From: an uncultured Acidobacteriaceae bacterium
GTDB lineage: Bacteria > Acidobacteriota > Terriglobia > Terriglobales > Acidobacteriaceae
Direction: 5' to 3'
Assembly: GCA_963823865.1 (NCBI GenBank)
Contig: CAWGNC010000003.1
Coordinates: 1,603,842-1,667,841, forward strand
DNA: 64,000 nucleotides
Each line of letters starts with the position of its first letter. Position 1 is the first letter of the stretch. Under the pieces are notes generated by a model. That model made no database searches, was not told the origin of the DNA, and saw only the letters and a program-made list of their open reading frames with translations. The position numbers were made by a program, and so were the translations under genes. Of this stretch, positions 6,824 through 60,650 are shown in pieces.

Positions 6824-6873
6824 ATACTCTGGCGTCCGAACCTGGCGCCGTAGTATTGATGCCCCATAACCTT

Positions 6874-8335: not shown

Positions 8336-8634
8336 GGACCCTCTCCTGTCCCAGGTGCCTCCGCTACGTCCAGTTTCGGGTGGCTCTGGGAGCCGAGATT
8401 ACTAAATCCTTGGGAAAACTCCTGCACTGAACGATTCGATGGGAGCTGACGGAAGACGATTTCTAGCGCGTCGAGACCCGTGATCGAGCGGCCGACAATG
8501 AGAAAAGTAGAAAGCGTAATAACACGAATTTGTAACTACCTATAGGCAAAAGATTTATAGAATGTCGAATTGATGTTGAATTTGGCCGCAGAAATAAATT
8601 AATTCCGCTGCTGCTTGGTTGTTTCCCAACTCCT

Positions 8635-8650
8635 TGGCCGTCGAGGTGCA
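8635..8650 (+). promoter_or_regulatory. candidate sigma54 (-24/-12) promoter
   Basis: TGGCCG-TCGAG-GTGCA has the exact GG-N10-GC spacing of TGGCAC-N5-TTGC. It lies 55-70 nt upstream of the PEP-CTERM gene at 8705 and downstream of an AT-rich tract (8480-8620). Confidence 0.35.
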
Positions 8651-8704
8651 ACATCCTAGCCAGAGTTATAGGACAAGGTCATCGCCACTGCGATCGGAGA
8701 CACT

Positions 8705-9382: not shown

Positions 9383-9405
9383 GTCCCATAGCACTGGTAC
9401 TGCAA

Positions 9406-9431
9406 AAGGCCCACTCGCGTGAGTGGGCCTT
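9406..9431 (+). terminator. hairpin terminator after the PEP-CTERM gene
   Basis: 11-bp stem AAGGCCCACTC/GAGTGGGCCTT with loop GCGT. The T-tract is weak (TGCTATT). Confidence 0.55.
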
Positions 9432-9493
9432 GCTATTGGCGCGGCTGCCGTATAATTCCAGCAACAAAACTCTAGCGGTACCGCGGGCTTTCC

Positions 9494-11305: not shown

Positions 11306-11327
11306 TACTCGCGAGCGCCACCTTCCC

Positions 11328-13688: not shown

Positions 13689-13742
13689 TCTTTTCGACCT
13701 TCAATGCCGCACCTGTCGTGGTTAACAAAACTCTCTCCCGCT

Positions 13743-15122
13743 TCACTTCTTACTTTTTACTTCGGCGAGCGCCAGCGCGCGTTCGTAAGTCTGCTGAGCG
13801 TCCTTCTGCATGCCTTTCGCTTTGTAGGCCAAAGCCAACTGAAGCAAAGCGTTGGCATTGTCCGGCTCAATATCAACCTGTTTCATCAACGCGGCCACAG
13901 CTATATCAGGCTCATTGAGTTGCATTGCCGCCACGCCGATGCCGGCATAGACCTGCGGATTGGCAGGATCGAGTTTCGCGGCACTCTGGAAGGCTTGCAG
14001 CGCGAGTTCGAAATTGCCATTCATTGCAGCGGCGGTGCCAATTCCGATCCGAGCCGAGGCATTGGCCGGATCGCGCTTGACGATTTCCGCGAAGGCGGCG
14101 ATGGAATCCTTGGCGCGACGCTCGGCCAGCAAAACCATCGCTAGCTGGTAACGAACATCATTGGCTGCAGGTTGAAGAGCCAGTGAGCGACGGAAGGACT
14201 GCTCCGCCGCCGGAAACTGTTGCTGCTGCAAGTAGGCCTGTCCCAACAGGGAAAATCCTTCGGCGAAATCAGGATTCTTGCGCACGCTTTCGTTCAAGTC
14301 GCCAATTGCCTGCTTGCTCTGTCCGGCGGCAAGCAGCGTCCGGCCTCGTTCTGCGGGAACAATGTAGCCTTCCGCGCGGACAATCAGACCGTAGCCGAGG
14401 ACCAGACTGCAGGCCGCCGCCGCGACGACCATCCAGCGCGCCGACGTCCACGCCAGTAGAGCGCCAACTAACAATCCCGATACCAGGCCACCGATGTGCG
14501 CCGCATTTCCGGCGCCTCCATTGAAAATGCCAACGAAGAGGTTGTATCCGGCAAAGGCGAGGACGCTCAACAGCACGGCCTTCATCGCGTTTCGAGGAAA
14601 AGGATGGTCACCCAGACAAAACGATGCGATCAGGGCTCCGGCTATACCAAAGACGGCACCGGAGGCACCGGCCTCGACGGAGAATGGATGCCAGAGAAGA
14701 CTGAGCAGCGATCCCGCAATGCCAGTGGTCAGATAAATGGTCAGGAACATTGTGCGGCCGTAGAGGCGTTCGGCAAATGATCCCAAGTCCCACAGACACC
14801 ACATGTTCACCGCGAGGTGCAGCCAGCCGAGATGCACAAACACCGAAGTAAACAGCCGCCAAGGCTGACCGCCGAGAGTCAATGGGCCGAAGTTTGCGCC
14901 CCATAGCGTGGACCGCTGCGATGCCATCAACCCGTGCGGCATCGGCAACAGCTTCATCGCGCAGAAGACCACGACACAAGCCGCGATCAACAATGGCGTG
15001 ATGACAACGGCAGGTACCGGATTGATCGAAGCCGTCACGTTGTTAGCGCGGTCAGCAGGCAGCGCGCCCGCAGTCGACGCGTCGATCAACAGCTCCCCCG
15101 AATTTGTTTCGGCTCGATTCAT
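13743..15122 (-). CDS. rhomboid-family intramembrane serine protease fused to C-terminal TPR repeats
   Basis: Rhomboid motifs WRLFTSVFVHLGWLHLAVNM, GASGAVFG (catalytic Ser) and AHIGGLVSG (catalytic His). About five TPR-like repeats lie in the C-terminal 200 aa. Confidence 0.85.
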   Translation of the reverse strand: MNRAETNSGELLIDASTAGALPADRANNVTASINPVPAVVITPLLIAACVVVFCAMKLLPMPHGLMASQRSTLWGANFGPLTLGGQPWRLFTSVFVHLGWLHLAVNMWCLWDLGSFAERLYGRTMFLTIYLTTGIAGSLLSLLWHPFSVEAGASGAVFGIAGALIASFCLGDHPFPRNAMKAVLLSVLAFAGYNLFVGIFNGGAGNAAHIGGLVSGLLVGALLAWTSARWMVVAAAACSLVLGYGLIVRAEGYIVPAERGRTLLAAGQSKQAIGDLNESVRKNPDFAEGFSLLGQAYLQQQQFPAAEQSFRRSLALQPAANDVRYQLAMVLLAERRAKDSIAAFAEIVKRDPANASARIGIGTAAAMNGNFELALQAFQSAAKLDPANPQVYAGIGVAAMQLNEPDIAVAALMKQVDIEPDNANALLQLALAYKAKGMQKDAQQTYERALALAEVKSKK

Positions 15123-15127
15123 TGGTT

Positions 15128-16339
15128 TTAGGCCATTACCGCCGGCTGCGCTTCCGGCACCTGCTGCCGGGTTGAACGCCGCAGGAAGTCCTCCACCCTA
15201 TCCGCGACGTCATCCCATGTCTGGGAACGCGCGTAGCGAACAATCCAGTCGCGATCCCAACTGATGGCCAAGGCGCCGCGCAAGCCGCCGTAGATTGATT
15301 CCGGCGTAGCCTCGACGACGATGCCGAGTTTGGGATCACTCAGAATCTCCGAGACTGCACCAGTATCCGTCGCGACGACTGGTATGCCACACGCGAGAGA
15401 TTCAAGCACAACGTTGGGCCAGCCCTCTTTGCGGCTTGGCAGACAGCTGACGTCGGCAGCGACGAAGTATTGTCTGAGTTCGCAGTTGTCGACAGCTCCG
15501 GCGAACCGGCAAACATCCGCACAACCGAGCTGCGCCGCCAACCGCTTGAGATTTGTCAGCTCTTCTCCTCGCCCGACGAACACGACCTTCAGTGTGGGAA
15601 CATCTTTTTTCAGCAACGCTGCAGCGCGAACCAGCAGGTCTGGACCTTTTACGTTCCGCAAGGCAGCCACGCTGACAATCATTTTGTCTGCGTCAGCAAT
15701 TCCGATCGCGCGCCTGGCCGAGGCGCGGTCACCCGGATAGAAGCGTCCGGCATCGACGCCGTTGCCGATCACTTCCGCCGACGCCAGCGTTCCTTCCAGC
15801 TCCAGCATGGCTCGTGCCAGAGAAGTGGACACCGCCGCTACAGCGTCAGCGTGACGAAGCGTCCAGCGAATCTGCGGACGAATCGTAGCGAACGACGGAA
15901 ATGTGTGGACATCGCTGCCGCGCGCAGTGACCGTGACTGGGATGTTCAGCGCCCGGCCCGTCATCACCGCCGCCAGGCCATCGGGAAAAACGTAGTGAGC
16001 GTCAATGCAGTCGAACCGGCGCTCCTGATGCAGCTGCCGCACGCGTCGAATGCACCCGGCGTACATGAGAGCGCCATGCAGAGGCATCGATACTCCCGGC
16101 AGCAGCGGATACCGGGGGTGATGGACCGACAGGCCGGCAAGGGTCTCGGCTTGCGGAATGGTGGCGACGCCTCCTCGCGAAGTGTTACTAAGAAATCTGG
16201 GTGCGTAGGGGACAGGCGCGACGACCTGAACACTATTGCCCTCGCGGCGCGCCAGGTGCAGAGTGCGTTGCAGGATAAAGATCCCGTGATTCGGCGACTG
16301 CGCGTTCGGAAAGAGACTGGTGAACGTCAGGATACGCAT
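15128..16339 (-). CDS. glycosyltransferase family 4
   Basis: 403-aa ORF starting MRILTFTSLFPN. Its C-terminus is GT4-like (PSRKEGWPNVVLESLACGIPVVATDTGAVSEIL). Confidence 0.85.
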   Translation of the reverse strand: MRILTFTSLFPNAQSPNHGIFILQRTLHLARREGNSVQVVAPVPYAPRFLSNTSRGGVATIPQAETLAGLSVHHPRYPLLPGVSMPLHGALMYAGCIRRVRQLHQERRFDCIDAHYVFPDGLAAVMTGRALNIPVTVTARGSDVHTFPSFATIRPQIRWTLRHADAVAAVSTSLARAMLELEGTLASAEVIGNGVDAGRFYPGDRASARRAIGIADADKMIVSVAALRNVKGPDLLVRAAALLKKDVPTLKVVFVGRGEELTNLKRLAAQLGCADVCRFAGAVDNCELRQYFVAADVSCLPSRKEGWPNVVLESLACGIPVVATDTGAVSEILSDPKLGIVVEATPESIYGGLRGALAISWDRDWIVRYARSQTWDDVADRVEDFLRRSTRQQVPEAQPAVMA

Positions 16340-16342
16340 GGT

Positions 16343-17248
16343 CTACACCTGTACACAGCGCTCCTTGACGTTTGCTGCGGACCGCTCTCCGGCCGCACCG
16401 TTGATTTCCGCCCGCGCGGGAAGATATACGTTTTCGTAAATCGTGCCAAGCTTGAACTGCTGCAGCAGCCGCTCCAGCTTGGTCTTCATTTGCGAAAGGC
16501 CGGTGTATTGCCGCAGCCGCGATTTCGCGGAAGCGTGCAACCGGGGCTGCGACGGATCAATTTCCCACGGATGCAGATACAAGACCGCAGGTCGCCGTTC
16601 GTCATGATTGATGGAGCGCAGGCCGGTGCGCATCAGCGCGTAGGGCAGAATCCGCAGGTAGGCTCCGCCCGCGACCGGAACGTTTTGCCCCAGAACACGC
16701 CAGGTCGCCACGGGTAGCTCAAGCAAGTTACGACCGACGCGGAAAGGCTCCCGGCTGGCGCCTGCGTTTCCGTAAAAACCGTGATGGATCGGGTTCACGC
16801 TGGAGTCATAAGAGAAGCCCAGCTCTTCCAGAACGTCGTAGGCCCACGGCACGGCCTGCGTGATGGAGAAGCACGGAGCGCGATAACCGTAAACCGGCGC
16901 GCCGCTCGCATCTTCGATCAAACGCTTGGCTCGAAACGTGTCTTCGCGAAATTCCGCCGGGGTCAGCCTAAACACGGCCCGGTGCCAATAGCTGTGACAT
17001 CCCACCTCATGCCCAAGATCGCTGGCCTGCTGGACGAGCGCGGGGAACCTTTCGGCTACCCAGCCTAGAAAGAAGAAAGTGGCGCTGACGTGATACCTGG
17101 CGAATAGCTCGAAAAGGGCGTTTGTATTGGCCTCAACGTGGCAGTCGAAGGCGTTCCAGCGCTCGCGCGGCGCGACAGCCGACATGGCTTCGGTCTGGAA
17201 GTAATCCTCGACATCGACGGAGAGGGCGTTTACTGGAATCATTCGCAT
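16343..17248 (-). CDS. polysaccharide deacetylase, PEP-CTERM-locus subfamily (DUF3473-type)
   Basis: Reading from the ATG at 17248 gives MRMIPVNALSVDVEDYFQ, the characteristic N-terminus of this subfamily. The ORF track extends to 17467 but that upstream part is not protein-like. Confidence 0.8.
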   Translation of the reverse strand: MRMIPVNALSVDVEDYFQTEAMSAVAPRERWNAFDCHVEANTNALFELFARYHVSATFFFLGWVAERFPALVQQASDLGHEVGCHSYWHRAVFRLTPAEFREDTFRAKRLIEDASGAPVYGYRAPCFSITQAVPWAYDVLEELGFSYDSSVNPIHHGFYGNAGASREPFRVGRNLLELPVATWRVLGQNVPVAGGAYLRILPYALMRTGLRSINHDERRPAVLYLHPWEIDPSQPRLHASAKSRLRQYTGLSQMKTKLERLLQQFKLGTIYENVYLPARAEINGAAGERSAANVKERCVQV

Positions 17249-17505
17249 TGACAGTTGCAGTCGAACTGCCAAAAACTCAAGCCTTTGCCGAAGCCACGGG
17301 CGGCAAAACCATGGGGGAAGCAGCGAAAAAGAGGTTTCAACGGAAAAAGTTTTCTTAATTAGCTGACAAATTGAGCCTAGTTCGTTATCTCTAGAGACAG
17401 CCGCTCCAGATCGCCAAGCTGTAGCCGCGCTGACGCTTAAGACGTTTAGACGGCCCAGGACCACCAATTTCCAAGCGCTGCAGACGAAGGTCCCGAAAGC
17501 TGAGG

Positions 17506-30555: not shown

Positions 30556-32019
<1,464 letters not shown>

Positions 32020-39976: not shown

Positions 39977-41299
39977 ATGACGTTTTCACGGGCGAGCTCG
40001 AGTTGGACGAGCGGCGGTCTTCGACGCGCCCACCCGACGCTCATTTCTGCAATTACGTTCCGTCCTTGGCAAAGTCGTCTCAATCGCATGCTTGCGGTCT
40101 CGTCTCTGTGCCTCCTGTCGGGATGCTACTTCGCATTGGTCATCGCGCCCGTCGCGTTGGGAGGGAAAGCGCCAACCGTTCAGCAAGGTCTCTTTCCCGA
40201 ATGGCTCGGCGTCAGAGAGATTCTGCAAAGGGGCAATCCCTACCGTCAGGAGGTAACGGACCAAATTCAGGCGGCAAGCTACGGCTCAACACCGCCGGGC
40301 AAGCGAGTCAATCAGCAGCGATTTGCTTACCCTGTCTATTTCGCGTTTCTGTTTCTACCGTTGGCGGTCGTCCCGTTTTCCGTGGCCCGAATCCTAGCTT
40401 TCGCTGGCTGCCTGGCATCGACAATCGCCACCGTTCATCTGTGGTGCAGATGGCGGGGGTGGCAGCCGGCAGCGACCGTGATTGTGGGGCTGTTTGTCTT
40501 TGCCAGCTATCCCGCGATCCTGGGACTGCAGTTATGCCAGCCGTCGCTTCTTATCGCTGGTTTGTTAGCGGTGGTCGTGTATTGGGTCCACTCAGGGCGG
40601 CTCGTTCCGGCGGGGATTCTGGCCGCACTCTGCAGCGCGAAGCCCCAGCTGGCGGTCGCGGTCTTGTTGCCCTTGTCGATCTGGGCAGCAGCCCAGTGGC
40701 ACACTCGAAAACGATTCGTCATGGCATACGGCTGCTCCCTTTCCGCGCTACTACTTGCCTCCGACGTCTTGGTCCCCGGCTGGTTTCCTCAATGGCTCAC
40801 GACCATTCGCGCCTATTCGGACTATGCCGGCAGCAAACCCCTGCTGGCTGATTTGCTTCATGCACATTTCGTTTGGGGGACAGCCTCCCTGCTTGTGATC
40901 GCAACTGCCTGGATAAGCCACAAGTTCTGCGAAGTCGATTTGCTCTTCGCAATCAGCTTCTCGATAGCTGTGTTTCAGCTGCTGTTCCCATTTCTTCTGT
41001 ATAACGAGATCCTCCTGTTGCCGGCAACTCTGTGGTTGGTGCGCACACCAGCAGAAGTCAAAACGGCCGGACAGATCTTTGAGCTGCTCTGGGGTTGCTG
41101 TTGGGCGTTATTGATCGCGGGGGCGGCAGCCTCGCTGGGGCTCGCGGTTTCAAACCTTATCGTGCCCGGCTCAGGACTGAAGTTGTGGCAACTTCCATTC
41201 GTGGCGGCATGGCTCTACCCCTGGTCAGTGTTGCTGGCTCTCGCCTGCTACGCAGCTTGCTGGCGAGTTAGATTTGGCGGCGCGAAAGTCCGGCCGTGA
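39977..41299 (+). CDS. DUF2029/GT87-like polytopic membrane glycosyltransferase-like protein
   Basis: 440 aa with about 11 TM segments and the motif FAYPVYFAFLFLPLAVVPF, typical of DUF2029 proteins. Confidence 0.65.
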   Translation: MTFSRASSSWTSGGLRRAHPTLISAITFRPWQSRLNRMLAVSSLCLLSGCYFALVIAPVALGGKAPTVQQGLFPEWLGVREILQRGNPYRQEVTDQIQAASYGSTPPGKRVNQQRFAYPVYFAFLFLPLAVVPFSVARILAFAGCLASTIATVHLWCRWRGWQPAATVIVGLFVFASYPAILGLQLCQPSLLIAGLLAVVVYWVHSGRLVPAGILAALCSAKPQLAVAVLLPLSIWAAAQWHTRKRFVMAYGCSLSALLLASDVLVPGWFPQWLTTIRAYSDYAGSKPLLADLLHAHFVWGTASLLVIATAWISHKFCEVDLLFAISFSIAVFQLLFPFLLYNEILLLPATLWLVRTPAEVKTAGQIFELLWGCCWALLIAGAAASLGLAVSNLIVPGSGLKLWQLPFVAAWLYPWSVLLALACYAACWRVRFGGAKVRP

Positions 41300-42570
41300 T
41301 CCGCAGCTTGGGAGACCGCAAAGCTATTGCCGCTGCGGTTCTGATTGCATTTGCTGGTTATATGTTCCTGAACCTCCGGATTGCTCCGTCCGTCTTCGGC
41401 CGATCCAAGAACGATTTTGCCTGCTTCTACCGCGCCGGCAGAATGGTCCTCGAAGGGGATGGATACCGAATCTATGAACTATCTGCAGAACGCGACTACG
41501 ATGACACGCTGGGAACCAAATCCGTAGATGCGGACGGAAACGCTATTTCCCTGCCCTTTGTTTTCGCGCCTTTCACGCTTGTTCTGTTCGTGCCGATCGC
41601 GGAACTGCCTTTTCGTCAGGCAGCGTTTGTCTGGTACACCCTGAACGTCGCAATACTGCTCGCGCTGCCATTCCTGTTCAGGAGGAGCCTTGATCTTGGC
41701 CCTAAGGCCCTCGTCGTAACCTTGATTGCTCCTCTTTTTTTCCTCCCAGCAATCCTTGCTTTGATACAGGGTCAGCCTGCCATCCTGATGTTGCTGTTCT
41801 TCGTTCTCGCTTACCTTAATTTGGAGTGCGGCCGGGAATTGCGCGCAGGCTGCTGGCTAGGCTTGGCAAGCTTCAAACCGCAATTCGTTCTACCGATGTT
41901 GCTGGCACTCATGGTGTGGCGTAAGAAAAGAGCATTGCTAGCCTTCGTCCTGACTTGTGCCGGCCTGATTGCCGTCTCAATTCCAATGGTGGGATGGCGG
42001 GCGACTTTCGGCTACCCTCGCGCGCTGATGCGATACGCCGGCATGGCAGGCCAGTTTGGTGGGGAACACCCGGCCAGCATGCCAAATCTGCGAGGCTTCT
42101 TATACTCGGCCTGGCACACTCGAGTAACGCCAGCTTTGCTGCAGCTAATTACGTTTGCAATCTCATTAGTGCTGCTGGCGGCCATGGCGTGCGTGCTGGA
42201 GCGGTGGAAGAAACTCTCGTGGGACGCCTTCTCATTGGTGCTCATCGTCACATTGCTGACCAGCTATCACGCCTACTTGCACGACGATTCGCTTCTGCTT
42301 CTGCCTTGTCTCATCCTCGGAAGACAGGTGCTTCACTGCAATGAACCTGTTTTTCAAGTGTTGGCGTTTTCGAGTATCGCGGCCGTCTTTATCGTGCCCT
42401 TGGTTCCGACTTCACTGACTACGACAGCTTCGCAGATGTTTGTGGTTATCCTGGCGTCCGCGACCCTGATGTCCGTTCGCATGTTCATGACAGATAACAC
42501 CGCACCACCGCCAGAAGAGATGAAGGGGCGTTCAGTTTCCGTTGACGCCAGATCCCTGGTTTCACGTTAG
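41296..42570 (+). CDS. DUF2029/GT87-like polytopic membrane glycosyltransferase-like protein
   Basis: 424 aa with DFACFYRAGRMVLEG and LPFVFAPFTLVLFVPIAELPF. It overlaps the preceding paralog by 4 nt (GTGA). Confidence 0.7.
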   Translation: MIRSLGDRKAIAAAVLIAFAGYMFLNLRIAPSVFGRSKNDFACFYRAGRMVLEGDGYRIYELSAERDYDDTLGTKSVDADGNAISLPFVFAPFTLVLFVPIAELPFRQAAFVWYTLNVAILLALPFLFRRSLDLGPKALVVTLIAPLFFLPAILALIQGQPAILMLLFFVLAYLNLECGRELRAGCWLGLASFKPQFVLPMLLALMVWRKKRALLAFVLTCAGLIAVSIPMVGWRATFGYPRALMRYAGMAGQFGGEHPASMPNLRGFLYSAWHTRVTPALLQLITFAISLVLLAAMACVLERWKKLSWDAFSLVLIVTLLTSYHAYLHDDSLLLLPCLILGRQVLHCNEPVFQVLAFSSIAAVFIVPLVPTSLTTTASQMFVVILASATLMSVRMFMTDNTAPPPEEMKGRSVSVDARSLVSR

Positions 42571-42751: not shown

Positions 42752-43456
42752 TTACCGCCGCTCGGGCGGCAACGCGCTGGCAATTGAATCTCTCACAGCC
42801 AACATTAGCGTGTCCCGATCCGCATAATCGTGCGGCTCAATCGGCGAATGAAAAATTACCGTCGCCGTTCCTTTGCGCAACGCGAAGCGCCGCTTCGGCC
42901 AGCTTTCGAAGGTTCCTAGCAGCGTAACCGGAATCACCGGAACGCCGGAGTCCATTGCGAGATGGAATGGGCCTTTCTTGAAAGGCAGCAGCCGTCCATC
43001 GCTCGAGCGCGTTCCCTCAGGATAGATCACCATGTGCAAGCCTTTCTTCAGAACCTCGGTCGCTGCGCGAACACTCTCGATGGCTGCTTCGCGGTCCGAA
43101 CGATCGACGGGCACCAGGTCCGCCTGATGCATTCCCGTCCCTAGGATTGGAGTGCGGAAGAGCTCTTTCTTCACCAGCACCGAACAACGTCCGGGGATGC
43201 TCGGAACCAGTACCGGCGGATCGAGGTTCGAAACGTGGTTGGACATAAAGATGTAGTTCTGGCCGGGACGAAGGCTTTCCATCCCTTGCAAAACGATCTT
43301 CACGCCCACCAGTCGGACCCCGAGGATGCCGAGGCGCGTCGCGATGTTATACAGCGGGTTGATATTTCCGGTGAGGGCGGCGAACAGGACCAGAGGCGGG
43401 CCGACGATCAGGATCGAAACTCCCCAAAACGCCAGCAACGCGACCGCCCTAATCAA
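42752..43456 (-). CDS. plsC: 1-acyl-sn-glycerol-3-phosphate acyltransferase
   Basis: NHVSNLDP (HX4D) and YPEGTRS motifs. The TTG start overlaps the stop of the M61 gene. Confidence 0.85.
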   Translation of the reverse strand: MIRAVALLAFWGVSILIVGPPLVLFAALTGNINPLYNIATRLGILGVRLVGVKIVLQGMESLRPGQNYIFMSNHVSNLDPPVLVPSIPGRCSVLVKKELFRTPILGTGMHQADLVPVDRSDREAAIESVRAATEVLKKGLHMVIYPEGTRSSDGRLLPFKKGPFHLAMDSGVPVIPVTLLGTFESWPKRRFALRKGTATVIFHSPIEPHDYADRDTLMLAVRDSIASALPPERR

Positions 43457-45318
43457 TGGGCAGCCCCGGTTTCATCGTCCCCGCGTACCCACGCCGCCCG
43501 ATGGGCGCGCTGCTCGGCGGTGACCGTCGGAAGATCGCGCAGCTCGTAATATTTTTCCTGACGTTCCGTCAGGCGAATCTCGACCTGGCGTTTGCCGCGC
43601 CGATTCTCCAGTTCAAAGTGAACCAGGGTCCCCGGCGACATGCGCGCAAGTTCGTTGTCCAGGTAGGCACTCGCGGGCGCGCCATTCATCGCGGTCACTC
43701 GATCGCCGGCGGTAATTCCCTGCCGCTGCGCCTCGCTGTTCGGCTCGACCGCCGAGACCTCAGACTGGCCACCAAGGTTCGCCGTAGTGGTGAAGCCCGC
43801 ATTGCCGACGCGGTTCGTGTTCGTCACCAGATGCAGGCCGGCAAACTGGAAGAACTCGTCGTAGGGAAGCTCCTTCAAACCGGAGACGTAATCATTGAAA
43901 AAGTCCGCGAAGCTTTGGCCCGTTACTTTCTCGGCGGCCGCCTCGACTCCCGAGGAGTCGGGAAAATAGCGGTGCTGCTTGGCGTATTCGTCGTTCATGT
44001 AGTGAAACAGGTCGCGCAGCGACTTCTTGCCATTTGTCAGCTGGCGCATGCGAAGATCGAGCAGAATGCCAAGCAGTTCGCCCTTATTGTAGTAACTGAT
44101 GCTGCGCTCCGGTGACCGGTAAAACGGGATTCCCTCAAACCACGCGTCGAGGCTCGATTCCTCCGCCGACTGCCAGGTATGCGCGGGGCGATGCTGCAGC
44201 TCCGTAATCTCTCCCGCCACCTGACCCAGATACTGTTTCTCATCGATCAGCCCGGAGCGCACCAGCATCAGGTCGCCGACCGTGCTGGTTACCCCCTCGC
44301 TGAACCACAGAGCGCGAGTGTCCATCTCCTGCTGATAGTTGATGGGCTCCAGAGATTGCGGCCGGATGCGCTTTACATTCCACAGATGAAAGAACTCATG
44401 CGCGGTGACCTCGGCCAGGGGCAACAGGTCGGCACGCAACCGTTCGGCATTGACGTCGATGGCGGTTCCGTAGGCGTGTTCCATACCACCGCCCGCCGGT
44501 CCATGCGGAAAGTGATACAGGAACGTGTATTCGTCATAGGGCCGGTCTTGCATCCAATCCACTTCCGCATGGGTAACTTGCTTCAATACGCCATCGAGCT
44601 TAGGCATGTCGTAATCAGCCGGATTGCCATGTACCACAACGTGGTAAGTAGCCCCGTCTTGCTGAAAAGAAGATTGCTGGAAGGTACCTACTTCTGCCGG
44701 GCTATCCACGAGCTCGTCGTAGTTGGCTGCCACCCCTACAGTCTGTTCAACCTTACCGGGCGCAGCTGAGCCAAAGACGTGCACATCTCGCAGCTCCCAC
44801 GTTGTGGGAACGTCGAGGAAGCGAATGCTCATCGGTTGCGAGCGAAGATCTGGCAAATACATCAGCACCATGGCCCAGTTGAAAAAGCCGTGATCGGCAT
44901 TCAGAGTGCTTCCGAACGGTCCGGGGCTGTTCAGGTAAATGTCATAACTGACGACAACGCAGCCCGCGGGGGCGACAACCCTCCACTCGCCGGTCTTTTC
45001 GTTGTTGGCCAGAACCTTTGCGCCGGAGGCATCCTCAGCACGAACGTTTTCGATATTGGCCGCGAAGTTGCGAACCTGATAAAGAGCGTTCCAGGCCGGC
45101 ATGAACAGAATGCGACTGCTTCGATCGTGCAGCCGGATACTCACATGCGCCAGGTGGCTGGCGGGATCGCTCAGCGAGACGAAGTACTCGGTCGCCTCAG
45201 GTTCAGGGCTGGCCGGAGTCGCGCAGGTGACCGAGGTCGCCGCGTAGGCATTCGTTAAGGGTAAACCGACGGCGAGCATCAGGAACCAACAGGCAAGAGT
45301 TGTGCGGATGCGGCTCAC
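43453..45318 (-). CDS. M61-family glycyl aminopeptidase with C-terminal PDZ domain
   Basis: Signal peptide, HEFFHLWNVKRIRP (HExxH) and a PDZ-like GITAGDRVTAMNG. Confidence 0.85.
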   Translation of the reverse strand: MSRIRTTLACWFLMLAVGLPLTNAYAATSVTCATPASPEPEATEYFVSLSDPASHLAHVSIRLHDRSSRILFMPAWNALYQVRNFAANIENVRAEDASGAKVLANNEKTGEWRVVAPAGCVVVSYDIYLNSPGPFGSTLNADHGFFNWAMVLMYLPDLRSQPMSIRFLDVPTTWELRDVHVFGSAAPGKVEQTVGVAANYDELVDSPAEVGTFQQSSFQQDGATYHVVVHGNPADYDMPKLDGVLKQVTHAEVDWMQDRPYDEYTFLYHFPHGPAGGGMEHAYGTAIDVNAERLRADLLPLAEVTAHEFFHLWNVKRIRPQSLEPINYQQEMDTRALWFSEGVTSTVGDLMLVRSGLIDEKQYLGQVAGEITELQHRPAHTWQSAEESSLDAWFEGIPFYRSPERSISYYNKGELLGILLDLRMRQLTNGKKSLRDLFHYMNDEYAKQHRYFPDSSGVEAAAEKVTGQSFADFFNDYVSGLKELPYDEFFQFAGLHLVTNTNRVGNAGFTTTANLGGQSEVSAVEPNSEAQRQGITAGDRVTAMNGAPASAYLDNELARMSPGTLVHFELENRRGKRQVEIRLTERQEKYYELRDLPTVTAEQRAHRAAWVRGDDETGAAH

Positions 45319-46761: not shown

Positions 46762-47737
46762 TCAATCGCGTACCACCGCCGGTCTCCTTTGCACCGCCGC
46801 CTGGTAGCTGAGTACCATCCCCGCCGCACTCGCCACGATATTCGCCTTCACTCCAAAGGGCAGAGTCAGCGCGCGGCTGGAAACATGCCCCGACTTCAGC
46901 CCGAAAACGATAGGAACATCCAGATAGCCGATGATCCGCATGAATGACCTGGGGTAGCGTATAGTCCAGCGCGCCGGCTTCATTGCAGTCGATCATCTCG
47001 CCGAAGACGATACCGCGTACGGCGTCGAACTTCCCTGCCAGCTTCAACTGCATCAGCATGCGATCGATGCGATAGGGGCGTTCCGCGCGATCTTCGAGGA
47101 ACAATATCGTTTCGTCGGTCTGAATCTCGTATGGCGTCCCCAGCGAGGCGACCAGTAGCGAGAGGCAGCCGCCGTATAGAACGCCTTCCCCGCTTCCCTG
47201 TTTGAGCACCTGGATACCATCCGCGGCTCCAAAGTCGCGACGGTACGACTGGTCGAAGGCGACAGCCGCGTTCCAACTCGACTCGTCCATTCCATCCGGC
47301 CGGGCAAAATCTCCGGCGACCATTGGCGCGTGGAAGGTCACCAGACCAGCCGCATCGCAAAGATACGTCAGCAGCGTAGTCACGTCACTGCAGCCGGCAA
47401 GAATTTTGGGATTGGCGCGAATCAATTCGAGGTCGAGATGCGGCAGCAGGTAGTTGCAGCCATAGCCGCCGCGGGCGCAGAGAATCGCCTTCACCTCAGC
47501 CCGGCGAAACATCTCGTGCAACTGGTCGACACGTCGGCGAACCGGCCCGCCAAAATACAGCTCGCGATCGAAGATTGACGGCAGGTAGAACGGCTGGTAT
47601 CCCAAACGCAACAAGTGCGCGCATCCCGCCTCGAACTCATCGCGCCGGAAACTGCTGGAGGGCGCAACAACTCCAACTGTATCGCCGGGTTGCAGGGCCG
47701 CGGGACGGACGCGCTCGGGCTGCGAATGAGAGCTCAT
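46762..47737 (-). pseudogene. ldcA: LD-carboxypeptidase (S66) with one apparent frameshift near nt 46940
   Basis: VAPSS, CARGGYGCNYLL and GCSDVTTLL lie in ORF 46739..47737. The conserved C-terminus IIGYLDVPIVFGLKSGHVSSRALTLPFGV is in the frame of ORF 46762..46983. Confidence 0.8.
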
Positions 47738-47751: not shown

Positions 47752-48534
47752 TTAACTGAAAAACTCGCCGCGGCAGAGTAGCGTGGCAGGTCCAGTGAGG
47801 AAGACCTCGCGATCCCATTCCACCGTCTGTGCTCCACCCAGCGACCGCACGCGGACCGGCGACTTCGCCCTGCCGACATGAATGGAAGCGACCGCGGCCG
47901 CGCTCGACCCTGTGCCCGACGACATGGTCTCGCCCACGCCACGCTCGCAGAACCGCACGTCGATTTCTCCCGTGCCCAGGACCTTTACGACCTCGACGTT
48001 CATGCCTTGCTTGAAGTCCGGGTGCATCGAGATCTGTTCGGCGACCGTCTGCCAGCCCGGCTCGAACTCCGAAACAAACGCAACAAAGTGCGGATTGCCC
48101 ATCGATACCGGGATGCCCGTCACCCTGCCGCCCTTGACGTCAACGGTAAGGTCGCCGCCGATCTCGGGCGCTCCCATCGAGCTGCGAAATTCGAATTCGT
48201 GGCCGTCACGCGACTTTAGCTCGCAGGTCTTCAGCCCGGCACCTGTGCGAATCACAACCGAACTCCGGTGATTCTGGTCGCAATACCACGCCGCGACACA
48301 GCGCGTGCCGTTGCCTGAGATTTCGGCCTCGGAGCCGTCGGCATTGAAGAGCCTTATTGCTAAGTCTGCATCGCCGGCAGGCAAAACCCACTCAACCCCG
48401 TCGGCGCCCACGCCGTTATGCCGGTCGCAGATGCGACGGGTAAAGGCGGGCATATCGCTGGGAGCATGGGAGAGGTCGATGATCAGGAAATCATTGCCGC
48501 AGGCAGTTGCTTTGACAAAAGGGATGCTCGCCAT
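47752..48534 (-). CDS. dapF: diaminopimelate-epimerase-fold protein (DapF homolog) with Ser at both catalytic Cys positions
   Basis: ACGNDFLIID, FNADGSEAEISGNGTRC, MGNPHFV and ERGVGETMSSGTGSSAAAVA. This is colinear with DapF, but the canonical C-G-N-G and A-C-G-[ST]-G cysteines are encoded as TCA and TCG (Ser). Confidence 0.8.
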   Translation of the reverse strand: MASIPFVKATACGNDFLIIDLSHAPSDMPAFTRRICDRHNGVGADGVEWVLPAGDADLAIRLFNADGSEAEISGNGTRCVAAWYCDQNHRSSVVIRTGAGLKTCELKSRDGHEFEFRSSMGAPEIGGDLTVDVKGGRVTGIPVSMGNPHFVAFVSEFEPGWQTVAEQISMHPDFKQGMNVEVVKVLGTGEIDVRFCERGVGETMSSGTGSSAAAVASIHVGRAKSPVRVRSLGGAQTVEWDREVFLTGPATLLCRGEFFS

Positions 48535-48607: not shown

Positions 48608-50306
48608 CTACTGGGATTCCGGCGCCGCCTTCGGCTTATACACCGTGCAGCTCGACTGATATGGGGCGCTTATTGTTATCAAGCCGGTGAATTCTGCCTT
48701 GTGACCCTGCACCGCGGCCCAGACCGGATCGCCCTGGCATGCGACCGCGTAGTCTGCACGATGCGCCGGGTCGAGGAGAGCCAACTCCCAATCGGGATGC
48801 TCGGCCTCAGAGATTACGTGGCGCAGCGGAATTCCTGCCAGGCGGATCGCGCCCGCATGTTCGGCTTCGTACATCAGCAGTGTTGAGTTCGGCGGCAGCT
48901 GGATGAGAACCCCGGCCAGTCCCTGTTCCAGCGAGTTTCGGTCGCGCGAGTTCACCTTGGCCTCGCGCAGAGTGATTGGCGACTCAGCGTAAGCGGAGAT
49001 GTAGCTGACAAGGACGGCGGCGATCAGCAGACACGGAAGCATCACCCTCAACGCGGCCGAGGTCGCCTTATCCCGGAGAGCCATCACAGCGATCACCGGA
49101 AACACCGCGAAGACCGGTAGCAGTTCCATTCCGTAACGGACGTTGTAATACGAAAAGGGATACCAGACCGGAATGTAGATGGGCACGCTGCCATAGGCAA
49201 TCGAGAGCGAGTAGAACGCAAACGGCAGCCAGAGCAGCAGCAGGACTCCGTAGCGCCGGAAGCGCCACGCCGCCACCCCAGCGCCCAGCAACGCCAGCGC
49301 GAACAGAAGCTTGCCCCCAGACCGGCGATCCCATGTTCAGCTGCGCCGACTTCAGGAAGTAGAAAGCCGCAGTGAATACGTCATGCTGACCAGGATATGG
49401 CGGAGCGCCTTGCGCCGTGCTTCGCAGCGCGATCGCCTTGGCAGAATACGGACCGTTGATGAAGTCCAGCGCGTTGCCAGAGACAGCCCAGGTGTACACC
49501 AGCCAGTAAACCGGCACGAGCGCATTCAGCAACAGGACTTCAACGAACGACTTCGTCATCGCTGCGGCGGAGCCGTGCATCGGCCGTGCGACGATACCAG
49601 GCGACGAAGAGCCCAACGAGGATCAGGCCAAAGATAGCCGCGGAGAACCAGCCGTCATAACGAGTGAGAGCGCCGCCATACATCGTGATACCGCAGTACT
49701 CCAGCGCACGTTGCGGACTGAGTTGAGCCTCGGCAAGAGCGGAGCCTGGCAGCGGCGGATTCGTGGCCCGCAGAAATTCATCGAGATAGACCAGCGACCA
49801 GATGAAGAACGCCAGGAAAATCGGCTCATTCATCGCCGTAGTCTGCATGTACAGCAGATTAGGATTGAGCGCGTAGACCGCTGCAGCGAGATAAGCCAGC
49901 AAGTTGCCCGGCGTCGCGCGTTCACCAGGCGATAGATGCCGAGCGTGCCGAGTACGAAAGCCAGCATGCCGGGAATCGCTCCCGCAATGCCGCTCTGCCA
50001 AAGGGTCGTTACCCAGACGAACGGCAGCATGGCGATGTGCTGCAGCGGAAGCCACACGGTGCCCAGTTGCCCGTAGGATTCGATGGGATGCCGGTTGTCA
50101 ACCACTCGCCGCGCGATGTTCAGATGGGCGACCGCGTCGCCGTAGAGCAGAAGTTCCTGCTTGGCGTAATAGAACAGCAGCGCAGCAACCGAGACGGCTG
50201 CCAGCAGCATGGTGAAGCGCGCCTCATTGCGCTGCTGCCGAAATTGTCGCGCACCATTGACTCGATAATCCTTCTTTAGAGAAGGCGAGGCGCTAGTTTT
50301 CGGCAT
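48608..50306 (-). pseudogene. GT-C-type (ArnT/PMT, GT39-like) polytopic membrane protein, broken by about 3 frameshifts
   Basis: Four consecutive ORFs (49830..50327, 49540..50055, 49068..49616, 48608..49291) join into one ~565-aa membrane protein (LLLYGDAVAHLNIARR...). The junctions are near 49920, 49580 and 49318; the last falls in a C5/G5 run. Confidence 0.6.
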
Positions 50307-50328
50307 TTGATTGCTGGGCGGTCTCACG

Positions 50329-50607
50329 CTAAGGCCACCTCTGCGCCCCGTGGACTATGCTGAGAATGAGGACGCGCTCAGGTCCAACACGATAGACAAT
50401 TACGTAGGGTAGTGGAAGCAGGCTCAATTCCCGTGTACCGGGCACACGTCCGGACCTCCCACGGTTGGGCATTTCTTTCAGACTTTGAATTGCGTCGTAG
50501 ATGGACCGCGACACCCGATTGGCGACTTCCAGGCTGCGGTCAGCTTCAATGTACTCGGAAATTTGCTTCAGGTCGGACACCGCATGGCCAGACCATTCGA
50601 CACGCAT
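50329..50607 (-). CDS. type II toxin, ParE/RelE family
   Basis: 92 aa reading MRVEWSGHAVSDLKQISEYI...YVIVYRVGPERVLILSIVHGAQ. It directly abuts the antitoxin stop. Confidence 0.8.
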   Translation of the reverse strand: MRVEWSGHAVSDLKQISEYIEADRSLEVANRVSRSIYDAIQSLKEMPNRGRSGRVPGTRELSLLPLPYVIVYRVGPERVLILSIVHGAQRWP

Positions 50608-50832
50608 TTAGGGGCGTTCTCGCTGCTCTAGCCATCCGCGAACGTCTTCGTCCGCGACCACATCGCCATGATCCGCCGCCTCTTGGCTCGCGGTTACCTT
50701 GCGTTCGAACCACTGATTGTAGGCAACCAGGTTATTGACCGCCTCTTCCAGAAGTTCGCTTTTGTCCCGATGGGTACGCTGGGCCAACTCGTCCAATTTG
50801 GCTTCGAGTTCCGGGGTCACATGGAATGCCAT
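50608..50832 (-). CDS. type II antitoxin (ribbon-helix-helix/ParD-like)
   Basis: Reading from the ATG at 50832 gives MAFHVTPELEAKLDELAQRTHRDKSELLEEAV. It lies immediately upstream of the toxin. Confidence 0.7.
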   Translation of the reverse strand: MAFHVTPELEAKLDELAQRTHRDKSELLEEAVNNLVAYNQWFERKVTASQEAADHGDVVADEDVRGWLEQRERP

Positions 50833-50978
50833 GCGAGTTAGTTTAACGCGACGTGATAAGTAACGAAAGGAAGAAGCTCTGGCCGTACCCTCGGCTGGAG
50901 CCAACTCTGGGCCGCAATTAACGACAAGACGCGGGCCTAGCGCCCGGCTCGCCGAAACAATGCTGAACGGCGGCCTTC

Positions 50979-51902
50979 TCAGTCCAGGTGCGTCAGCTCG
51001 CGGAACATATTGAAGCGCTGGTCGATCTCTTCGCGTGTCAGCGACTGCAGACGCTCGGTGCCGAAGCGCTCGACGGCAAACGATCCCATCACGCTGCCGT
51101 AGAACATGGCATGCCGCAGCACGCGGCGGTTGATCTCGCCCTGCGACGCCACGTATCCCATGAAGCCCCCGGCGAAACTGTCGCCTGCTCCGGTAGGATC
51201 GCGCACTTCGTCGATCGGCATGGCCGGAGCGCGGAAGGGATGATCGCCGGCGCCAAACTCGTGATCGCGGAAGAAGATGGTCGCGCCGTACTCGCCGTGC
51301 TTGATGACCAGCGCGCGCGGGCCCATTTCCATGACCTTGCGGGCGGCCCGCGGCAGGCTGTTGTCGTCGGCCAGCATCTTGGCTTCGCCGTCGTTGATCA
51401 GCAGGATGTCGACGCCCTTCAGCATCTTGTCCAGGTTTGCACGATGGCCGGTGATCCAGTAGTTCATGGTGTCGCCGCCGACCAGCTTCACCTTCTGCAT
51501 GTTGTCGCGAACGCGTTTCTGCAATACGGGATCAATGTTGGCAAGGAAGAGAAAGTCGGAGTTGTTGTACTCAGCCGGAATCGACGGTTGAAAGGTTTCG
51601 AAAACGTTTAACTCGGTATTAAGCGTTTTGGCTTCGTTGACGTTCTCGCCGTACTCGCCGGTCCAGTGGAAGGTCTTCCCTTTCGCGTGCTGGATGCCTC
51701 GGGTGTCGACGCCGCGCTTCTTCATGACGTCTTCGTTCTCGGCCGTGAAGTCTTCGCCCACCACGGCCACGACGCGCACGTCGGTGAAGTAGCTGGCGGA
51801 AAGCGAGAAGTAGGTAGCTGCGCCGCCCAGGATCTTCTGGCGCTCGCCGAATGGGGTTTTCAGAGTATCGAATGCGACCGAACCAACCACAAGAATGGAC
51901 AA
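50979..51902 (-). CDS. PfkB-family carbohydrate/nucleoside kinase
   Basis: 307 aa with the DPTGAGDSFAGGF motif and the N-terminus ILVVGSVAFD. It lies 3 nt downstream of mtnP. Confidence 0.85.
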   Translation of the reverse strand: MSILVVGSVAFDTLKTPFGERQKILGGAATYFSLSASYFTDVRVVAVVGEDFTAENEDVMKKRGVDTRGIQHAKGKTFHWTGEYGENVNEAKTLNTELNVFETFQPSIPAEYNNSDFLFLANIDPVLQKRVRDNMQKVKLVGGDTMNYWITGHRANLDKMLKGVDILLINDGEAKMLADDNSLPRAARKVMEMGPRALVIKHGEYGATIFFRDHEFGAGDHPFRAPAMPIDEVRDPTGAGDSFAGGFMGYVASQGEINRRVLRHAMFYGSVMGSFAVERFGTERLQSLTREEIDQRFNMFRELTHLD

Positions 51903-51905: not shown

Positions 51906-52790
51906 CTACGCTCCCGCTTTCTTTTCGGAATCGAAATATTTACCGACCAGCAACTGCAGCCGCTCGAGCGTTGCCGCCGGTACCGCGCTTTTCTGGGTAA
52001 GGATGGCGTTCTTCAAGGCCGAGCCGCATTTGCAGACGCGCGTCTTCGGCATCGACGCGACGGCTGCCCGCACAACACTACAGGCGTGCTCGGCGTTTTT
52101 CAGCAGCACAGAGACAATCTGCTCGACGCTAACATCGTCATGCTCCTCATGCCAGCAGTCGTAGTCGGTAACCATGGCGACGGTGACGTAGCAGAGTTCA
52201 GCCTCGCGGGCCAGGCGCGCCTCGGTAAGGTTGGTCATGCCGATGACGTCAAGACCCCAGCTGCGATACAGGTTCGATTCCGCCTTGGTGGAAAACTGCG
52301 GGCCTTCCATGTTGAGGTAAGTGCCGCCACTTTTCACATTGACGCCGGTTGCCTTGCAGGCGGCGACGGCGACCCGCGACAGCTCACCACAAACCGGGTG
52401 TCCAAGACCGACGTGCACCACCAGGCCATTGCCGAAGAAGGTATCCACGCGATGACGCGTGCGGTCGACGAACTGATCGGGAATCACGAAGTCCAGCGGG
52501 CGATGCTCTTCTTTCAGCGAGCCCACAGCCGAGAGCGACAGAATGCGCTCGACGCCTAGCTGCTTCATGCCGTGAATGTTGGCGCGGTAGTTGATCTCGG
52601 TCGGCGAGAAGCGATGCCCGGCGCCGTGGCGCGAGAGAAATGCGACCTTGCGGCCTTCGAGCGTGCCCAGCATGTACGGGTCGGAAGGCGCGCCGAACGG
52701 CGTCTCTAGCGTGACTTGCTGAACGTCGCTAAATCCCGGCATGGTATACAAACCGCTGCCGCCGATGATGCCAATCTCTGCCTGCTGCAA
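51906..52790 (-). CDS. mtnP: S-methyl-5'-thioadenosine phosphorylase
   Basis: IGIIGGSGLY, FLSRHGAGHRFSPTEINYRANI and GMTNLTEARLAREAE motifs. Confidence 0.9.
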   Translation of the reverse strand: MQQAEIGIIGGSGLYTMPGFSDVQQVTLETPFGAPSDPYMLGTLEGRKVAFLSRHGAGHRFSPTEINYRANIHGMKQLGVERILSLSAVGSLKEEHRPLDFVIPDQFVDRTRHRVDTFFGNGLVVHVGLGHPVCGELSRVAVAACKATGVNVKSGGTYLNMEGPQFSTKAESNLYRSWGLDVIGMTNLTEARLAREAELCYVTVAMVTDYDCWHEEHDDVSVEQIVSVLLKNAEHACSVVRAAVASMPKTRVCKCGSALKNAILTQKSAVPAATLERLQLLVGKYFDSEKKAGA

Positions 52791-53141: not shown

Positions 53142-53236
53142 CCAGTTACTACGTTACGCGATTGGCAATGGCGCAAGTCAAGGACGAGGGAAGATTTTTC
53201 GCGCCCGTGGTTCCAAATCGGGAGCGGCGGCACACC

Positions 53237-54786
53237 TTACCGCAGCAGCGCCGCCATGCCCTGCGCGCTCTGCGTCAGACCCAGCGACCAGTTCACCGCG
53301 TTGATGAAGAAGTTCGGGAACAGCCCGATGCCGACCGTTCCGAGCGCGGTGATGCGCCAGCGCCAGCCTCATCGCCGGACTCAGCCGCACCGGCTCGGTT
53401 TCCATCGGCTGGCGCATCAGCATGGCATTGGCGATGCGCATGTAGTAATACAGGCCGATGACGGCGTACAGCACGGCGACCGCGGCCAGCGAGTAGTGTC
53501 CCGTCTGGATCAGGCTGAGGAAGATGAAGTACTTGCCCCAGAAGCCCGCCAGCGGCGGAATTCCCGCCAGCGACAGCAGGAAGAGCAGCATCAGCATGGC
53601 TTCGGTCGGCGCTTTGAAGAAGAGGCCGGCGATGTCGTCGATCTCGTCGCCAATGATGTTGCGGCGGCGCAGCGAGGTGATGACCGCGAACGCGCCCAGG
53701 TTCATGAACGTGTACACCAGCAGGTAAAACAGGATCGCCATGATGCCGGTGGAATTGTTCTGGCCATCGCTGGCGACCAGGCCCAGCAGCATGTAGCCGA
53801 CGTGCGCGATCGACGAGTACGCCAGCAGACGCTTCAGGTTGGTCTGCGTCATCGCCGCCAGGTTGCCGCCGGTCATGGTGGCGATGGAGACGAAGACCAG
53901 CAGCGGCACGTACATCGAGCGCAGCGGATACAGTCCGAAGAGGAAGATGCGAAGCAGCATCGCCCAGCCCGCAGCCTTCACCGCGACCGACATAAAGCCG
54001 GTCACGCTGGTCGGCGCGCCTTCGTAAGCGTCGGGCGCCCATTGATGGAATGGCACGGCGGCGATCTTGAAGAGCAGGCCGGCGGTCGTCGTCAGCAGCG
54101 CGAAGATGACGATCGGATCGTTGGGCCGGGTGGCGAGCAATCTTCTGCAGCCCCTCCGCAATGCCTGCCAGGTTGGTGCTGCCGGTCAGTCCGTAAAACA
54201 GCGACAGGCCGTAAGCGAAGATGCCGGACGAAAATGCGCCCAGCAGCAGATACTTCAGCGCCGCTTCGTTGGAGCGTTTGTCGCGGCGCAGGAAGCCGAC
54301 CAGCACGTAGGTCGAGATGGCCATCAGTTCCAGGCCGATGAACAGCAGCACGATGTCGTAGCCGGCGGCCATGCACATCATGCCGACGACGGAGAACAGC
54401 AGCAGCGCGTAAAACTCGCCGTGGTTCTCCTGCTCGATCTCGAGGTAGCGAATCGACATCAGAACGGCGATGGCCGCGCCCGCCAGAAACAGGTAGAAGA
54501 AATAAATGGCGAACGGATCGACCAGCAGCGATCCCATGAAGCCGGTGTCGATGAATGCGAGTCCCTGCTCGCTGGGCCAGGTGATAGGCCCAATGCAGCT
54601 TGCCGACTGCGGCGGCGGAAAATGCGATGCCCAGCCAGCGCGATGAAGGCGTTGACCCGCTTCCACTGCTTTCGGGAGGAACAGGTCGATCAGCAGGATG
54701 CCGAGCGCAAACAGCGTCAGCAGCAGCATGGGCAGGGCCAGCAGGTAATCGGAAGCCGAAAAAAATTGTGTGAGCGAGGTGGTCAC
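53237..54786 (-). pseudogene. nuoN: NADH-quinone oxidoreductase subunit N, at least 5 apparent frameshifts
   Basis: NuoN sequence is recovered only by switching frames near 54671, 54631, 54575 (all three at 3-nt homopolymers), 54138 and 53356. The true C-terminus ...ITALGTVGIGLFPNFFINAVNWSLGLTQSAQGMAALLR* ends at 53237. Confidence 0.85.
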
Positions 54787-60543: not shown

Positions 60544-60650
60544 CTGCCGTCCCTAAAGGGACTCTGACTCTTTATCTGCCTACCCAGCACTCCGCCTTCG
60601 GCTCCGTGCTGGGCTAAGCTATTCCGTCCCGCCTTGCGGGACTGTAGCTT
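60544..60650. repeat. CTGCCGTCCCTAAAGGGACT module plus hairpins
   Basis: A core variant followed by the hairpins CCCAGCAC..GTGCTGGG and GTCCCGCCTTGCGGGAC. Confidence 0.8.

Follow-up and report, generated by a model that had tools for sequence, protein, structure and literature searches.

A widespread natural form of DapF with serines at both catalytic cysteine positions in Acidobacteriota

Diaminopimelate (DAP) epimerase, DapF (EC 5.1.1.7), is the textbook two-thiol cofactor-independent epimerase and an antibiotic target, and its inhibitors (aziridino-DAP and other thiol-directed compounds) depend on the two cysteines. Serine has been placed at the catalytic cysteines in the laboratory, one position at a time, in H. 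influenzae DapF (C73S and C217S; 2q9h and 2q9j) and in the histidine racemase HisR (C67S and C209S), with greatly reduced turnover (PMC11602996, PMC12039745). Natural replacements of one cysteine by a hydroxyl residue occur in trans-3-hydroxy-L-proline dehydratase (Cys/Thr) and in the Asp/Glu racemase EcL-DER (Thr/Cys), where the outcome of the reaction is changed (reviewed in PMC8142540). Here we describe a dapF-like gene in a 64,000-nucleotide stretch of an uncultured Acidobacteriaceae bacterium (assembly GCA_963823865.1, contig CAWGNC010000003.1, positions 1,603,842 to 1,667,841), which we call the window. Its product is a full-length, vertically inherited and strongly constrained DapF with an intact DAP pocket, in which two invariant serines replace the cysteines. 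The gene and the two codons are:

47752..48534, minus strand: DapF-family coding sequence, Acidobacteriota-type Ser/Ser variant (open reading frame, PF01678, TIGR00652, AlphaFold2, ratio of nonsynonymous to synonymous substitution rates, dN/dS)
48316..48318, minus strand: codon TCA for Ser73, in the column of the first catalytic cysteine (Cys73 of H. influenzae and E. coli DapF; alignments, AlphaFold2 model)
47917..47919, minus strand: codon TCG for Ser206, in the column of the second catalytic cysteine (Cys217; alignments, AlphaFold2 model)

The open reading frame (ORF) starts with ATG and, its stop codon included in the coordinates, encodes 260 amino acids. The protein matches Pfam PF01678 (DAP_epimerase) with two domains (9.4e-44; 148.8 bits against a cutoff of 34.7) and the NCBIfam equivalog model TIGR00652 (DapF) over residues 5-258 (7.5e-58; 196.1 bits against a cutoff of 114.65). 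It carries the motifs GNDF (13-16), NADGSE (64-69), GNPH (146-149) and ERGVGET (197-203). Together with the phmmer alignments given below, the ORF and the profile scores bear out what a sequence-only reading of the window had proposed, namely that the protein is colinear with DapF and has its motifs. The Pfam search gave no match to PF05544 (proline racemase, hydroxyproline epimerase and trans-3-hydroxy-L-proline dehydratase) or PF02567 (PhzF/YddE isomerases). The PROSITE DapF signature, which we take to be N-x-D-G-S-x(4)-C-G-N-[GA]-x-R, fits N64-A-D-G-S-E-A-E-I-S73-G-N-G-T-R at every position except the cysteine. In length, two-domain fold, motifs (including ERGxGxT), DAP-contacting residues and a score above the equivalog cutoff, the protein is like the canonical DapFs of H. 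influenzae (2gke), Anabaena (9mro) and A. thaliana (3ejx). Unlike them, the variant has serine for both cysteines, has lost Met60, Met72 and Lys/Arg82, keeps His149 only in part, and has gained Ser205, Ser210 and Thr77.

The assignment of Ser73 and Ser206 to the two catalytic columns follows from phmmer alignments to three solved DapFs (9mro, 5h2g and 3ejx), in which 'aeiSgngtrc' aligns to 'pemCgngirc' and 'getmsSgtgs' to 'gitlaCgtga'. The same placement was obtained in an alignment of 150 representatives, and no alternative alignment to the three solved DapFs places a cysteine at either position. The thiol/thiolate pair of DapF (Cys73 and Cys217) is thus absent from the window protein. Both serines are strictly conserved. 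The motifs EISGNGTRC and xSSGTG stand in every one of the 120 closest database homologs (73-99% identity), and serine occupies both positions in 91/91 related genomic loci, in 46/46 clusters of the acidobacterial type (against cysteine in 57/57 canonical clusters) and in 116/116 distant acidobacterial homologs from a profile search with distant Ser/Ser members. Among several hundred sequences, there is no case of Ala, Gly or Thr at either position. The serine codons in the 91 loci include TCC, TCG, TCA, TCT and one AGC, a synonymous turnover, and pairwise dN/dS of the gene against its relatives is 0.06-0.14 (about 0.1), with dS near saturation. The strict invariance, the codon turnover and the low dN/dS indicate that the serines are selected rather than drifting.

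These data also bear on whether the serines might be an artefact, either a sequencing or assembly error or the trace of a decaying pseudogene. The window does come from an error-prone assembly, with frameshifts in ldcA, in the upstream membrane glycosyltransferase gene and in nuoN. However, the dapF-like ORF is intact, and both serines occur in every relative, in independent assemblies and with differing synonymous codons, under a dN/dS of about 0.1. The conservation data refute the artefact, to which we assign a practically negligible probability. The sequence-only reading had likewise held that the serines are not sequencing errors, and the hundreds of relatives show it to be right; its argument from the codons was correct about TCA and TCG but is weak as proof, since a change from cysteine to a TCY or AGY serine codon takes a single step. 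Catalytic cysteines relocated elsewhere in the protein were considered and rejected: Cys12 and Cys196 are kept only in near relatives (family-wide, L/C/A stand at position 12 and W/F/Y at position 196), and Cys/Cys DapFs commonly have Cys36 and Cys79 too. A Ser206-His149-Glu197 triad was rejected as well, as it is not family-wide.

An AlphaFold2 model of the window protein, built on 45 Ser/Ser sequences, has a mean predicted local distance difference test score of 97.5 and a predicted template modelling score of 0.93. It consists of two pseudo-symmetric alpha/beta domains with the N-termini of the central helices facing the cleft, as in DapF. Ser73 and Ser206 are the residues just before the predicted helices 74-88 and 207-219, the same location as that of the catalytic cysteines in DapF. 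In a Foldseek search against the PDB, the top 26 matches are all DapF or O-ureidoserine racemase, with template modelling scores (TM-scores) up to 0.91, and the best scores belong to closed, inhibitor-bound DapFs (9mro, 0.91; 3ejx, 0.90). PhzF/YddE structures appear only from rank 27 (14-18% identity), and proline-racemase-type structures are remote matches of lower rank (13-19% identity). Chains of the C73S and C217S mutants of H. influenzae DapF and of the HisR mutants are among the matches. Like the window protein, these engineered enzymes have the same fold with serine at a catalytic cysteine position. They are single, laboratory-made substitutions, whereas the window protein carries both serines naturally, under purifying selection across the phylum and with co-varying neighbours.

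The residues of DapF that form hydrogen bonds to the two ends of DAP are, in H. influenzae numbering, presumably Asn11, Asn64, Asn75, Asn157, Asn190, Glu208, Arg209 and Ser/Thr219. In an alignment of 46 Ser/Ser representatives of the acidobacterial type with 57 Cys/Cys representatives, N14, N64, N75, N147, N179, E197, R198 and T208 of the window protein, together with the flanking glycines, are invariant in both groups. The roles of these residues in contacting DAP are taken from published DapF structures, in part from PMC12039745. Besides positions 73 and 206, the most discriminating positions between the Ser/Ser acidobacterial type and the Cys/Cys enzymes are the following:

Position 60: Met lost in Ser/Ser; Met in 55/57 Cys/Cys
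Position 72: Ile/Leu/Val in Ser/Ser; Met in 54/57 Cys/Cys
Position 77: Thr in about half of Ser/Ser; mostly Ile/Leu/Val in Cys/Cys
Position 82: Ala in Ser/Ser; Lys/Arg in Cys/Cys
Position 149: His in 28 and Gln in 18 Ser/Ser; His in 57/57 Cys/Cys
Position 195: Phe/Ile in Ser/Ser; Val in Cys/Cys
Position 205: Ser in Ser/Ser; Ala in Cys/Cys
Position 210: Ser in Ser/Ser; Ala in 54/57 Cys/Cys
Position 231: Thr/Ala/Ser in Ser/Ser; Leu in Cys/Cys

Positions 77 and 210 are each i+4 from a catalytic-position serine. Judged from the alignment, the surroundings of both catalytic positions are remodelled, second-shell residues included: they are richer in hydroxyl groups, contain fewer methionines, have lost one basic residue and have gained no obvious new general base.

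The Ser/Ser state is widespread. In a survey of 1.84 billion cluster representatives, it was found in tens of 50%-identity clusters, down to ~38% identity to the window protein, and Ser/Ser and Cys/Cys clusters separate almost cleanly in a neighbour-joining tree. When one genome of each GTDB species was scanned for the peptide E[IL]SGNGTRC, taken from a 19-sequence alignment, at least 600 matches came up; the best 80 are all from metagenome-assembled genomes of Terriglobales, Acidobacteriaceae or Korobacteraceae, which puts the window in Terriglobales. The named members among the 116 distant Ser/Ser proteins belong to 'Acidobacteria', Blastocatellia and Candidatus Saccharicenans/Aminicenantes, and the 2.75-Mb Aminicenantes record CP070757.1 encodes one of them. 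With members in Terriglobia, Blastocatellia and Aminicenantia, the variant therefore spans the phylum Acidobacteriota. On this distribution, the gene shows the pattern of a vertically inherited housekeeping ortholog and not that of a patchy accessory paralog, because its members span the acidobacterial classes and the synteny of methylthioadenosine (MTA) phosphorylase, a PfkB-family kinase and dapF is common to classes. We found no paper on natural Ser/Ser or Ser-containing DapFs; subscription journals lie outside the coverage, so 'not described' is provisional. The Ser/Ser variant of this familiar enzyme is real, natural and widespread, and it appears unstudied.

One Ser/Ser representative from Nitrospirota (P0233) is nested among the Cys/Cys clusters and led to a second Ser/Ser family in other phyla. 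This family comprises at least 119 clusters, with serine at both positions in 119/119 and the motifs AEKSGNGLRI and TLASGSS[SA]C; proteins P0426-P0542 belong to it, and its named members are from Armatimonadota, Rokubacteria, Binatia and Nitrospirota. Its scores of 243-266 bits on the DapF model exceed that of the window protein. The family resembles the acidobacterial type in having serine at both catalytic positions, an intact DAP pocket, a peptidoglycan-related context and an enrichment of Ser210 (83/119, against Ala in 54/57 canonical clusters). Unlike the acidobacterial type, it keeps Lys82, His149 and Ala205 of the Cys/Cys enzymes, has Lys72, and stands beside ddl instead of ldcA and mpl. 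In two lineages the gene lies directly behind ddl in translational coupling and overlaps the ddl stop codon (L097:10001-10855 and L099:10001-10867), with a plsC-like gene nearby in one lineage and a NamZ gene in the other. In a bootstrapped neighbour-joining tree the second family forms its own clade with 100/100 bootstrap support, and a joint clade with the acidobacterial type has 8/100. The Ser/Ser state probably arose twice independently, although a distance tree is no proof of this. Single-Ser DapFs (Cys/Ser or Ser/Cys, among them P0268, P0205 and P0238) nest among canonical Cys/Cys sequences; a Cys/Ser DapF is encoded on a 2.86-Mb contig of the isolate Rubrobacter indicoceani, a cultured actinobacterium (WP_119065600.1, P0239).

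Some survey sequences, at least as called, fuse a Ser/Ser DapF domain to an Rce1-like/CPBP membrane protease (P0151, P0153) or to a NUDIX domain (P0169), and in one locus (L093) an Rce1-like gene stands on its own ahead of the dapF homolog. The NUDIX enzyme RppH is bound by DapF in E. coli. As a Rosetta-stone clue, the fusions are uninformative: the NUDIX domain is MutT/NudG-like and not RppH-like, and the low-complexity linkers of the NUDIX fusion are typical of merged gene calls.

In the window, the dapF-like gene is the first of a run of genes on the minus strand, with further conserved genes upstream:

46789..47737, minus strand: ldcA, LD-carboxypeptidase (Peptidase_S66; Pfam S66/S66C), 14 bp downstream of the dapF-like stop codon
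45315..46733, minus strand: mpl, UDP-MurNAc:L-Ala-gamma-D-Glu-meso-DAP ligase (TIGR01081, 439 bits against a cutoff of 388.7)
43453..45318, minus strand: M61 peptidase with a C-terminal PDZ domain (Pfam)
42752..43456, minus strand: PlsC-type acyltransferase, last gene of the run (PF01553)
50979-51902, minus strand: PfkB-family kinase (NCBIfam/Pfam)
51906-52790, minus strand: MTA phosphorylase (NCBIfam/Pfam)

The run dapF-like/ldcA/mpl/M61-PDZ/plsC, read earlier from the sequence, is upheld by these Pfam and NCBIfam matches. The homology of mpl begins near 46733, although its mechanical ORF opens at 46829. The apparent 90-bp overlap of ldcA and mpl results from a frameshift in ldcA near 46942; in a tblastn comparison with an intact relative, the frame shifts from -1 to -2 at 46941/46943. 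A promoter and terminator scan of 42-53 kb gave no signal above background. Two features lie between dapF and the PfkB gene. A membrane glycosyltransferase gene (~600 amino acids, 48608-50327) is split over four frames, and genes for a ParE toxin (92 amino acids) and a ribbon-helix-helix antitoxin (98 amino acids) are inserted between it and the PfkB gene, at 50329-50904 on the minus strand; no genes are called at the matching place in the related locus L001.

The gene order MTA phosphorylase-PfkB-membrane glycosyltransferase-dapF(Ser/Ser)-ldcA-mpl-(M61)-plsC is kept in ~80 Terriglobales species with 58-79% DapF identity. Among the 91 loci, ldcA adjoins the Ser/Ser gene in 86, plsC is found in 71 and the M61 peptidase in 46, the latter being present in about half of the Terriglobales loci. 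In the loci examined, ldcA and mpl are absent beside the Ser/Ser gene in Blastocatellia, Aminicenantia and other acidobacterial members. Blastocatellia and two other acidobacterial lineages keep MTA phosphorylase-PfkB-dapF, an Aminicenantes genome has htrA-dapF, and further acidobacterial lineages have unrelated neighbours. The arrangement MTA phosphorylase-PfkB-dapF is common to Terriglobia and the Blastocatellia-type lineages (L090, L092, L096) at ~40% DapF identity; in the Blastocatellia-type lineages, genes for MeaB, a glyoxalase-family protein and a rotamase come before it. The link to murein recycling drawn in the sequence-only reading is therefore good for Terriglobales (~80 species) and fails as a property of the Ser/Ser family, since ldcA and mpl are absent elsewhere. 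The neighbourhood theme of the Ser/Ser families is peptidoglycan-precursor metabolism, not specifically recycling. As the ldcA/mpl context is limited to Terriglobales, neighbourhood alone cannot define the function.

We tentatively favour, with a confidence somewhat short of even, the reading that the gene is the phylum's DapF ortholog and that its product remains active on free DAP through a Ser/Ser site that has no thiol. The protein would bind free LL- and meso-DAP in the same pocket as canonical DapF and would be the cell's DAP epimerase, supplying meso-DAP to MurE and Mpl for peptidoglycan synthesis and recycling and to lysine synthesis. The hydroxyls of Ser73 and Ser206, predicted to lie where the two central helices begin, in surroundings enriched in hydroxyl groups (Ser205, Thr208, Ser210 and Thr77), would accept and donate the proton in place of the thiol/thiolate pair, with a turnover probably far below that of Cys/Cys enzymes. 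In Terriglobales, the gene appears to have been fixed at the head of a cell-wall operon, dapF-ldcA-mpl-(M61)-plsC. We favour this reading because inheritance and synteny are of the housekeeping type, because both serines are absolutely invariant whereas catalytic positions in dead enzymes usually drift, because the Ser/Ser state probably arose twice, in cell-wall contexts and with the common change to Ser210, and because Acidobacteria use the aspartate/DAP route. Null mutants of E. coli dapF are viable and accumulate LL-DAP, and low activity could then suffice for slow growers. Use of the aspartate/DAP route is indicated by a lysine riboswitch on asd-lysC in Solibacter (PMC5584792). No lysine riboswitch was found upstream of the Ser/Ser dapF in the window or in six distant loci, and papers on the lysine auxotrophy of Chloracidobacterium do not mention DapF. 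With slightly more reserve, we consider it possible that Acidobacteriota as a phylum run LL-/meso-DAP epimerisation on a natural thiol-free Ser/Ser site and that the second family does so convergently. If so, cofactor-independent amino-acid epimerisation would not need the cysteine thiol/thiolate pair that is deemed to define this enzyme class.

A number of observations weigh against a Ser/Ser epimerase, and several of them suit a protein that binds DAP but no longer epimerises it, such as a pseudoenzyme sensor, a partner or regulator (for instance in a heterodimer with an active DapF) or a ligand carrier, with meso-DAP supplied from elsewhere in the genome, by a canonical DapF or by a meso-DAP dehydrogenase. 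Serine is a favoured helix N-cap residue, so that its invariance at the two helix starts placed by the model could be selected structurally. The near-invariant Met60, Met72 and Lys/Arg82 of the Cys/Cys enzymes are lost and His149 is Gln in 18/46 clusters, changes that look like catalytic decay as much as adaptation. The alignment of 46 with 57 representatives contains no Ser/Ser-specific His, Lys, Asp or Glu that might serve as an activating base. Both acid/base residues are gone, and the known single Cys-to-Ser mutants of DapF-fold racemases are nearly inactive, with 'greatly reduced' turnover, and trap inactive open forms (PMC11602996, PMC12039745). A double-Ser enzyme would be expected to be far worse. 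The binding pocket, in addition, is wholly kept, as a ligand-binding role would predict. Such a non-catalytic role, the main rival reading, nevertheless seems less likely to us, given the phylum-wide vertical distribution with housekeeping synteny, the probable second origin of the Ser/Ser state next to ddl and the lack of any variation at either serine. Neither the 64-kb window nor the 91 related loci (~1.3 Mb) showed a second DapF homolog, which is weak evidence as only small parts of the genomes are visible. The sequence-only reading had offered a pseudoenzyme or different chemistry. Either is possible, but a thiol-free epimerase is at least as likely because the gene looks like the phylum's vertical DapF ortholog and the DAP pocket is intact.

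Different chemistry would mean, as that earlier reading implied, a murein-recycling enzyme with an altered substrate or reaction, acting on DAP-containing stem peptides (for example the tripeptide of Mpl) or another DAP-like compound by serine chemistry such as hydrolysis or transfer instead of epimerisation. The gene is probably co-transcribed with ldcA and mpl, given the 14-bp gap, the lack of a terminator-like site and the order kept in ~80 Terriglobales species, and in the model the two serines lie at helix N-termini whose backbone NH groups could form an oxyanion hole. However, N64, N147, N179, E197 and R198, which hold the free amino and carboxyl groups of the distal L-centre of DAP, do not vary, and DAP within a peptide would engage these distal-end residues differently. 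The model also takes the closed, substrate-enclosing form of DapF, neither the second family nor the other acidobacterial classes have their Ser/Ser genes beside ldcA and mpl, and a nucleophilic serine would have no conserved His, Asp or Lys partner, as His149 varies. We regard this alternative as improbable. The analogy with the proline-racemase superfamily, in which a Cys/Thr enzyme became a dehydratase, transfers poorly. Trans-3-hydroxy-L-proline dehydratase and EcL-DER are like the window protein in having a hydroxyl residue in place of a catalytic cysteine on a cofactor-independent racemase scaffold, but they keep one cysteine as base, and the window protein has none at either position.

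The phylum-wide Ser/Ser form forces one of two conclusions, and the probable independent second form points the same way. If the hydroxyl pair carries out epimerisation, the mechanism would be new, would resist oxidation and thiol-directed inhibitors and could be useful for biocatalysis. Otherwise, a soil phylum that ranks among the most abundant would make meso-DAP and lysine by an unrecognised route while carrying a conserved DAP-binding pseudoenzyme. At present, annotation pipelines name the Ser/Ser proteins 'diaminopimelate epimerase' through the equivalog model, and the missing catalytic residues go unnoticed.

Other features of the window were also noted. In nuoN (53178-54786), Proton_antipo_M is split across two ORFs. 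The frameshifts in ldcA, the membrane glycosyltransferase gene and nuoN are probably assembly indels and not pseudogenes, because related long-read metagenome contigs have similar split genes. Two copies of the Acido-Lenti-1 small RNA (Rfam RF01687) were found on the plus strand at 31945-31990 and 60583-60643 (54 and 39 bits, where the gathering score is 37), one site between the AdoHcyase and MetK genes and the other inside the nuo region; the two matches are in keeping with an acidobacterial origin. A large exopolysaccharide locus at 400-17467 encodes a Wzy-type O-antigen ligase, GT4 glycosyltransferases, the exosortase EpsH, a Polysacc_synt_3 flippase, a rhomboid-TPR protein and a polysaccharide deacetylase with DUF3473. 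Two tandem paralogs of GT87-family membrane glycosyltransferases (440 and 424 amino acids) lie at 39977-42570 on the plus strand, a short way upstream of the plsC end of the operon and in convergent orientation to it.

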